DNA from: a virus
Lineage: Duplodnaviria > Heunggongvirae > Uroviricota > Caudoviricetes
Virus record (IMG/VR): IMGVR_UViG_3300029888_000066
Length of the DNA: 15,582 bases
Strand: one strand, 5' to 3'
The notes beneath the pieces were generated by a model. That model worked only from the letters and a program-made list of their open reading frames with translations. It was not told where the DNA came from and did not search any database. Each line of letters starts with the position of its first letter. Position 1 is the first letter of the stretch. The translations under genes and the position numbers were made by a program. This document shows positions 15,055 to 15,582 of the stretch, in pieces.

Positions 15055-15321
15055 GTACTGATTTAGCTCAGTAGGTAGGGAATTGCCTTGTAATCAGTAG
15101 GTCACCAGTTCGACTCTTGCTGTCTCGCCCCATATTCCAATAGGCTCGCTTTGACGGGGCTTTTGTATGTCGCTTGCGATATGTTACAGTACCGTTATCA
15201 GTCTGTAGAAAATACACACAGGAGTGAAATGTTAAATTACCCACAACTCAGAGAGCGGAGTGTTGTCCTGTTAGTGGGGAATTTGTTAAAAGAATCCAGC
15301 ATGGTGAATCTCCCTGTGCGG

Positions 15322-15340
15322 CTGTCTCTTGATCAGATCT
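15322..15340 (+). repeat. 19-bp terminal repeat matching the IS50 inside end
   Basis: CTGTCTCTTGATCAGATCT, which is the Tn5/IS50 inside-end sequence as I recall it; contains GATC (Dam) sites. Confidence 0.65.
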
Positions 15341-15582
15341 CCTGATCAAGAGACTTCATCACCGGATAACCCTCAACCATATCCTGAAGTCTGAACCAGC
15401 CATCCCACATAACTACCCAACCAGGGCGGCCTGTGCGTTTGCTGTCATGCCATCGCCCCAGTTTCAGACAGGCCCATTTCAGTGTCGGCGTCTGTGACGG
15501 AAGCTGTTTTCCTTCCAGCTTAACCCACAGCAGTTTCCACTCTGTCGGCGTCAGTATTTTCTTACAGCTGTCATTTTGTGTT
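15333..15582 (-). CDS. IS50-like transposase, C-terminal 82 codons (5' part outside the window)
   Basis: Reverse translation ...LTPTEWKLLWVKLEGKQLPSQTPTLKWACLKLGRWHDSKRTGRPGWVVMWDGWFRLQDMVEGYPVMKSLDQEI; the DSKRTG...W..W.GW..LQ pattern resembles the Tn5 transposase C-terminus as I recall it; stop codon sits inside the terminal repeat. Confidence 0.7.
   Translation of the reverse strand, partial: TQNDSCKKILTPTEWKLLWVKLEGKQLPSQTPTLKWACLKLGRWHDSKRTGRPGWVVMWDGWFRLQDMVEGYPVMKSLDQEI

Follow-up and report, generated by a model that had tools for sequence, protein, structure and literature searches.

A probable ISEc13-family element end in a split STnc100-family small-RNA gene of the Escherichia coli iro island

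The window, that is, the whole stretch of 15,582 nucleotides analysed here, is a 100% match to Escherichia coli Nissle 1917, 536, ABU 83972, ATCC 25922 and other strains of phylogroup B2. In Nissle 1917 the region lies in the iro (salmochelin) island, with iroB and iroC on one side and the gene for a TonB-dependent receptor on the other. The window breaks off inside a transposable element whose neighbours in that genome are IS200C, an IS4-family fragment and a tRNA-Arg. Features are given below in window positions, which equal positions in the Nissle 1917 locus (L001) plus 9059.

14978-15054, plus strand: tRNA-Arg (UCU), in the lambdoid prophage remnant that is the source of the left flank (tRNA calls and annotation).
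15229-15345, plus strand: apparently fortuitous 38-codon open reading frame (ORF; MLNYPQL...) lying over the small-RNA promoter region, the 5' part of the small RNA and the element end.
15270-15321, plus strand: 5' fragment of an STnc100-family prophage small-RNA gene, model positions 1-52 (partial match to Rfam RF02076).
15322-15582, minus strand: 261 bp forming the inside-type end of a 1539-bp ISEc13-family element (100% match in Nissle 1917 and B2 strains).
15322-15340, plus strand: 19-bp terminal repeat, the same as the IS50 inside end (exact match).
15324-15354, no strand assigned: 13-bp perfect inverted repeat with a 5-nt spacer, over the stop codon (repeat search and fold).
15331-15334, 15336-15339 and 15344-15347, no strand assigned: three GATC (Dam methylase) sites (sequence scan).
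15333-15581, minus strand: transposase pseudogene, last 82 codons and stop (homology to Tn5 transposase).

The tRNA-Arg belongs to a module that is also found in the L004 prophage, downstream of an antiterminator gene. Directly after it, window positions 15060-15116 are 89.7% identical to E. coli tRNA-Thr. A second tRNA was considered here; ARAGORN and Rfam give no call, and the stretch is treated as a degenerate remnant, probably of a decayed phage tRNA. Elsewhere in the window, Rfam matches above threshold were obtained for DicF (1011-1062, minus strand), for the cspA thermoregulator (11687-12079, plus strand, upstream of a CspB-like gene at 11848-12063) and for STnc490 (12381-12504, plus strand, in the leader of IS200C). 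The DicF and cspA thermoregulator matches are compatible with further prophage remnants in the island. Positions 13061-13462 carry, on the minus strand, a second IS4-family transposase gene fragment that is unrelated to ISEc13 and is marked incomplete in RefSeq.

The tip of the element, CTGTCTCTTGATCAGATCT, occurs once in the window, at 15322-15340 on the plus strand. Its identity with the IS50 inside end, which the sequence-only reading had proposed, is confirmed with 0 mismatches against a real copy of IS50R on plasmid pMAK2 (L007 1824-1842), where the inside end is the same 19-mer; the chance expectation for an exact 19-mer match is ~1e-7. The three GATC sites reported within 15331-15347 are likewise present, starting at 15331, 15336 and 15344, and they form the sole such cluster among the 40 GATC sites of the window. 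Under random placement, three GATC starts would fall within 14 nt with a probability of ~0.017. The two leftmost fall inside the 19-mer and coincide with the sites of the IS50 inside end, whose GATC arrangement is kept here.

The element continues past the end of the window, and its full copy in Nissle 1917 spans 1539 bp (L001 6263-7801; NZ_CP022686 4662082-4663620). Rightward extension, which had been put forward as a check, does lead to the other end: the far, outside-type end is CTGTCTCTTATACACAAAT (L001 7783-7801). The outside end of IS50, CTGACTCTTATACACAAGT in the IS50R copy on pMAK2, is like it at 17 of 19 positions by manual count, and a DnaA-box-like TTATACACA is common to both. CTGTCTCTTATACACAAAT has a T at position 4, as does the inside end, and it also agrees at 17 of 19 positions with the engineered hyperactive mosaic end of Tn5. 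A 10-11-bp hairpin (ACAAATCCCC..GGGGATTTGT) begins inside this end. A search for a second copy of the element in Nissle 1917 found none.

On the minus strand, an open frame of 82 residues runs from 15581 to 15336 and stops at 15333-15335, within the 19-mer. In the full Nissle copy the transposase falls into two ORFs of 297 and 152 codons, the cause being a 1-bp deletion in an A-run outside the window, and RefSeq labels the gene 'IS4 family transposase, frameshifted'. Relative to intact ISEc13 there is also an in-frame 9-bp deletion near 15465. The repaired protein of 454 residues matches the solved Tn5 transposase structures with E = 4e-71 and is 37% identical to Tn5 transposase. The EDTT, CDREAD and Y-R-E-K signatures are all kept, and ALEDTT, VCDREAD and YERRWLIEEYHKAWK align with Tn5 D97, D188 and Y319/R322/E326/K333, respectively. 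NCBIfam model NF033590 scores 423 bits vs a cut-off of 160, and Pfam gives a match to Tnp_DNA_bind and a borderline match to DDE_Tnp_1. The homology of this frame to transposases of the Tn5/IS4 family, suspected from the letters alone, is thus well established. At the position of Tn5 Met56, the start of the inhibitor protein, the window element has a valine.

The name ISEc13 rests on the RefSeq label of a 96%-identical copy. In E. coli E2348/69, where ~31 places match the outside-type end, the copy beside mog (L015) is 1550 bp in length and carries the label 'IS4-like element ISEc13 family transposase'; over the whole element, it and the Nissle copy are 96.3% identical in DNA. By ISfinder convention, about 90% identity in DNA or 95% in protein makes two copies the same element. 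The Nissle copy shares with ISEc13 the ends, the inverted repeat next to the end and, once its frame is repaired, ~95% protein identity, whereas it differs from intact ISEc13 copies by the 1-bp frameshift, the 9-bp deletion, small indels in the leader and the lack of a target duplication. An intact protein of 457 residues and 95% identity represents 1389 member sequences. The nearest other named transposase relatives, which have the same Pfam domains, are two members of the IS50 subgroup, ISPlu9 from Photorhabdus (54% transposase identity) and ISPpr3 from Photobacterium (50%).

The IS50 subgroup is defined by a DDE triad with a Y-(2)-R-(3)-E-(6)-K signature, a length of 1350-1550 bp, ends of the form CW------Y---CA-A--W-, a single frame and direct target repeats of 8-9 bp (PMC2266710). 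The window element has the DDE triad and the Y-R-E-K signature, and at 1539 bp it falls within the size range, with CTGTCTCTTATACACAAAT and CTGTCTCTTGATCAGATCT fitting the end pattern at positions 1, 2, 9, 13, 14, 16 and 19. Its transposase does not occupy a single frame, being split by the 1-bp deletion; intact 457-residue versions exist elsewhere, which makes the window copy a decayed member of this family and not a representative of another. Target repeats of 8-9 bp are lacking in the window copy.

Much in the element would also be expected of IS50 itself, left behind as a remnant of Tn5: the 19-bp inside end is identical, the stop codon lies within it and at the same place relative to the end, the DDE and Y-R-E-K motifs are shared, and the lengths are close (1534 bp for IS50 vs 1539 bp). 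IS50 proper is set by near-identity to IS50R, however, and here the element departs widely. A full-length global alignment to the genuine IS50R copy of pMAK2 has only 56% identical columns, the transposases are 37% identical, and in the Nissle annotation neither aph(3')-II nor any other gene carried by Tn5 is found in the vicinity. An IS50 or Tn5 identity was rejected on this alignment and its probability is negligible; the earlier view of a relative of IS50, and not IS50, agrees with the 56% DNA and 37% protein identity.

Tn5 moves by cut-and-paste via hairpin intermediates, and the ancestor of the window copy, as a Tn5 homologue with both ends intact and a homologous DDE transposase, would have done likewise. 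Dam-regulated transposon ends, such as the IS50 inside end and that of IS10, have GATC sites within the stretch bound by transposase and are used in a methylation-sensitive manner. Yin et al. 1988 (J Mol Biol 199:35), a reference of PMC4265352 and PMC3347997, reportedly found that Dam methylation of the IS50 inside end blocks the binding of transposase. IS50 and the window element agree in the 19-bp end, in the pair of GATC sites within it and in where the stop codon falls. By this analogy we infer Dam control of the window end: Dam methylation would keep transposase from binding, and replication, by leaving the DNA hemimethylated, would lift the block. Dam also controls the transposase promoter of IS50 (PMC4265352). 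A consensus scan for a sigma-70 promoter near the leader GATC of intact ISEc13 found none, and we therefore make no claim of a Dam-controlled promoter.

To the left of the element, AGGAG at 15221-15225 is followed by an ATG at 15229 that opens a frame into the insertion sequence, as the sequence-only reading had described. It comprises 38 codons and a stop, ends at 15345 and has 31 codons outside the element and 7 inside. The further claim, that this frame is a gene truncated by the insertion, does not stand. A real protein gene would be in keeping with the good Shine-Dalgarno-like AGGAG 4 nt before the ATG and with a same-frame ORF of 40 codons in one prophage homologue, L004. Yet the L004 ORF is unannotated and has a TTG start that lies more downstream, the ATG and AGGAG are missing from the prophage homologues of the stretch, which are 78% identical, and each of the eight codon differences from L004 is non-synonymous (alignment read by eye). 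Pfam and PHROGs searches with the 38- and 64-residue ORFs and with the prophage ORFs on either strand returned no hits, RefSeq annotates no gene at this stretch, and the stretch is covered instead by a curated small-RNA family at 132-143 bits. That a protein gene was cut here is very unlikely, and by these comparisons the short ORF is a chance reading frame.

The small-RNA family is STnc100, a known prophage-borne small RNA (bioRxiv 10.64898/2026.05.13.724894). The flank at 15223-15321 is ~78% identical to lambdoid prophage DNA, and the homology ends exactly at 15321. Its counterparts in prophages lie downstream of an antiterminator gene and, in L004, also of tRNA genes; the L004 and L006 prophages have full-length STnc100, matching RF02076 at 132 and 143 bits (threshold 47). 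The fragment in the window, reduced to model positions 1-52, for that reason scores 15.6-21.2 bits, below the RF02076 gathering threshold of 47. The element entered STnc100 at its first hairpin, CCCCCuGuGCGGaGGGG. Judged by homology, then, what the insertion interrupted in the lambdoid prophage remnant is a small-RNA gene of the STnc100 family.

The other flank of the element has a different source. The 45 bp that adjoin the far end (L001 7802-7846; L074 2501-2545) correspond to the tip of an IS481-family element; in strain PapM-36-2 they run on without a break into an intact IS481-family transposase gene. The copy therefore stands at a junction between island modules, without a target duplication. 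The duplication that extension of the sequence had been expected to uncover is absent: a search at 8-12 bp found none, and the flanks CCTGTGCGG and TACTTATCT share nothing.

These observations are best accounted for by the following history. An active ancestor integrated at the loop of CCCCCTGTGCGGAGGGG, a small G+C-rich hairpin that is the first stem-loop of STnc100, leaving the first 52 nt of the gene (15270-15321) on this side. Later, as the flanks themselves suggest, the other flank may have been replaced, either when the element recombined with another copy or through a deletion beside it, which would explain both the missing target duplication and the 45-bp IS481-family piece next to the far end. 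A 1-bp deletion then broke the transposase frame. We infer that the window copy is a hybrid that arose from two-copy recombination or from an adjacent deletion; it cannot move on its own. Overall, we put the probability at about 93% that the window ends in a dead inside-type end of the ISEc13 family in the iro island, with an STnc100 gene split by the insertion, the other flank replaced and the short ORF due to chance.

The same junction between STnc100 and the element is found beside iroB and iroC on plasmid pCFSAN061771_01 (L005 3001-3160), which carries iro and iss, at ~90% identity. The plasmid version lacks the third GATC (CTGATAAAGAGAC) and has a truncated element. As the junction lies beside iro on the plasmid too, it is old and travelled with iro.

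The inverted repeat over the transposase stop codon had been given as a 12-bp perfect repeat. It is real and spans the stop, but its length is 13 bp (15324-15354), with arms GTCTCTTGATCAG (15324-15336) and CTGATCAAGAGAC (15342-15354), and the inner arm is an inverted copy of element-end positions 3-15. As RNA, the repeat has a folding energy of -23.4 kcal/mol (z = -5.2 vs shuffles). Codon use was compared among transposase genes from six lineages whose proteins are 50-77% identical. Invariant residues with four- or sixfold degenerate codons number 103, of which only three are encoded by the same codon throughout; the inner arm accounts for two of the three, its neighbouring Ser (TCT) and Leu (CTT). 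The retention of TCT CTT in all six lineages makes the repeat seem to be selected as nucleic acid.

The repeat could instead serve no purpose in itself and be a mere by-product of the peptide K-S-L-D-Q-E-I and of an end sequence that is fixed. The outer arm is, after all, the obligatory transposase-binding end, the S-L-[D/E] residues are conserved among relatives, and alignment with IS50 finds no such repeat there, a direct GATCAAGA repeat taking the place of the inverted one. A by-product, however, would not readily place two of only three single-codon residues (n = 103, six lineages) at the Ser and Leu of the inner arm, and the z-score of the RNA fold (-5.2) also points to selection on the nucleotide sequence. 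The by-product explanation is thus unlikely, and we take the repeat to be, as it seems, under selection at the nucleotide level. The roles that we favour for it are a 3' stem-loop stabilising the transposase mRNA or a second binding site for transposase.

Two inside-type tips also occur on their own. A perfect 35-bp palindrome made of them, CTGTCTCTTGATCAGGAGATCTGATCAAGAGACAG, stands alone in the spacer between trmL and lldD (L002 2499-2533 in E. coli C; alleles L068-L071), and it is present in 1985 of 5426 E. coli genomes. Exactly this sequence would remain if a full ISEc13-like copy underwent a deletion between its two GTCTCTT motifs, one in the outside tip and the other in the inner arm. 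In Scandinavium (L012, L021) a full copy lies downstream of the lldD homologue, at an apparently corresponding site.

The position of the window copy in a hairpin was set beside those of ISEc13 and relatives of the IS50 subgroup that have a clear target duplication, 26 distinct sites in total. By our own tally, the element occupies a hairpin-loop position in 22 of the 26, with stems of 7-17 bp (L015, the E2348/69 mog copy; L072, L023, L025-L033, L050-L053, L075, L076; and further L098, L120, L123, L131, L136, L140). The target hairpins are G+C-rich and terminator-like or boxC-like; in the first set, the reconstructed targets have energies of -15 to -25 kcal/mol, whereas local means are -5 to -10. 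The hairpin in the window, with a stem of 4-5 pairs, is weaker than most of the relatives' targets.

The duplications are centred on the hairpin axis and are 8, 9, 10 or 12 bp long. A single element of Alishewanella made duplications of 8, 9 and 10 bp, and among the sister copies of ISEc13 they are 8 bp (the mog copy, L072) or 9 bp (L075, L076). In contrast, the target duplication of Tn5 is fixed at 9 bp. A rule by which the duplication equals the loop length plus 4 fits the first set and fails for some of the second; only the symmetry about the hairpin axis and the range of 8-12 bp hold across both. Some distant relatives (L048/L144, L134, L127, L040) have end flanks that form inverted and not direct repeats (GGCAAAGCC, element, GGCTTTGCC), and the same 14 bp recur there in different contexts, reflecting either longer terminal repeats in those lineages or something else.

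A metagenome contig (L008 1-110) carries an intact ISEc13-like copy at the same STnc100 hairpin junction, in the opposite orientation and with an unrelated other flank. This suggests that the STnc100 hairpin is a preferred target, which would explain the recurrence of the junction in either orientation.

Insertion in repeated extragenic palindromes or symmetric targets is a property of IS1397, ISKpn1, ISRm22 and IS231A, which belong to other families or subgroups; ISRm22 is an IS4-family member (PMC1525189), and the IS231 subgroup makes variable duplications of 10-12 bp (PMC2266710). For the IS50 subgroup, hairpin targeting is not reported in the IS4-family review or in the paper on insertion sequences of repeated palindromes, within a coverage of the literature that is incomplete.

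Taken together, ISEc13 and its relatives in the IS50 subgroup could be structure-directed Tn5-like transposons with a symmetric cut, a functional end repeat and palindromic scars. We offer this tentatively, as a possibility that falls somewhat short of probable. Such elements would integrate in the loops of G+C-rich hairpins such as terminators, boxC-like repeats and small-RNA stems, and a staggered cut symmetric about the hairpin axis would let the duplication flex between 8 and 12 bp instead of being fixed at 9. The inverted repeat of the inside end would serve as a functional cis element, either a 3' structure that stabilises the transposase mRNA or a second site at which transposase binds, and microhomology deletion between the two GTCTCTT motifs would leave the 35-bp palindromic scars.

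The end in the window is a known kind of element, already annotated as an IS4-family pseudogene in well-studied strains; RefSeq marks it in Nissle 1917, 536 and ABU 83972. Being a known kind in well-annotated genomes, the locus is of low interest in itself. The annotation can nevertheless be corrected in three respects: the element belongs to the ISEc13 family and not to IS50, the insertion disrupted a small-RNA gene of the STnc100 family and not a protein gene, and the copy is probably a hybrid at an island-module junction. Through the junction that they share, the iro regions of plasmid and chromosome go back to a single old insertion. Only the hairpin targeting and the conserved palindrome at the end might repay more work. 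If true and not already published, the targeting of hairpins by a Tn5-like transposase, with duplications of flexible length, would be of interest to the study and engineering of Tn5.
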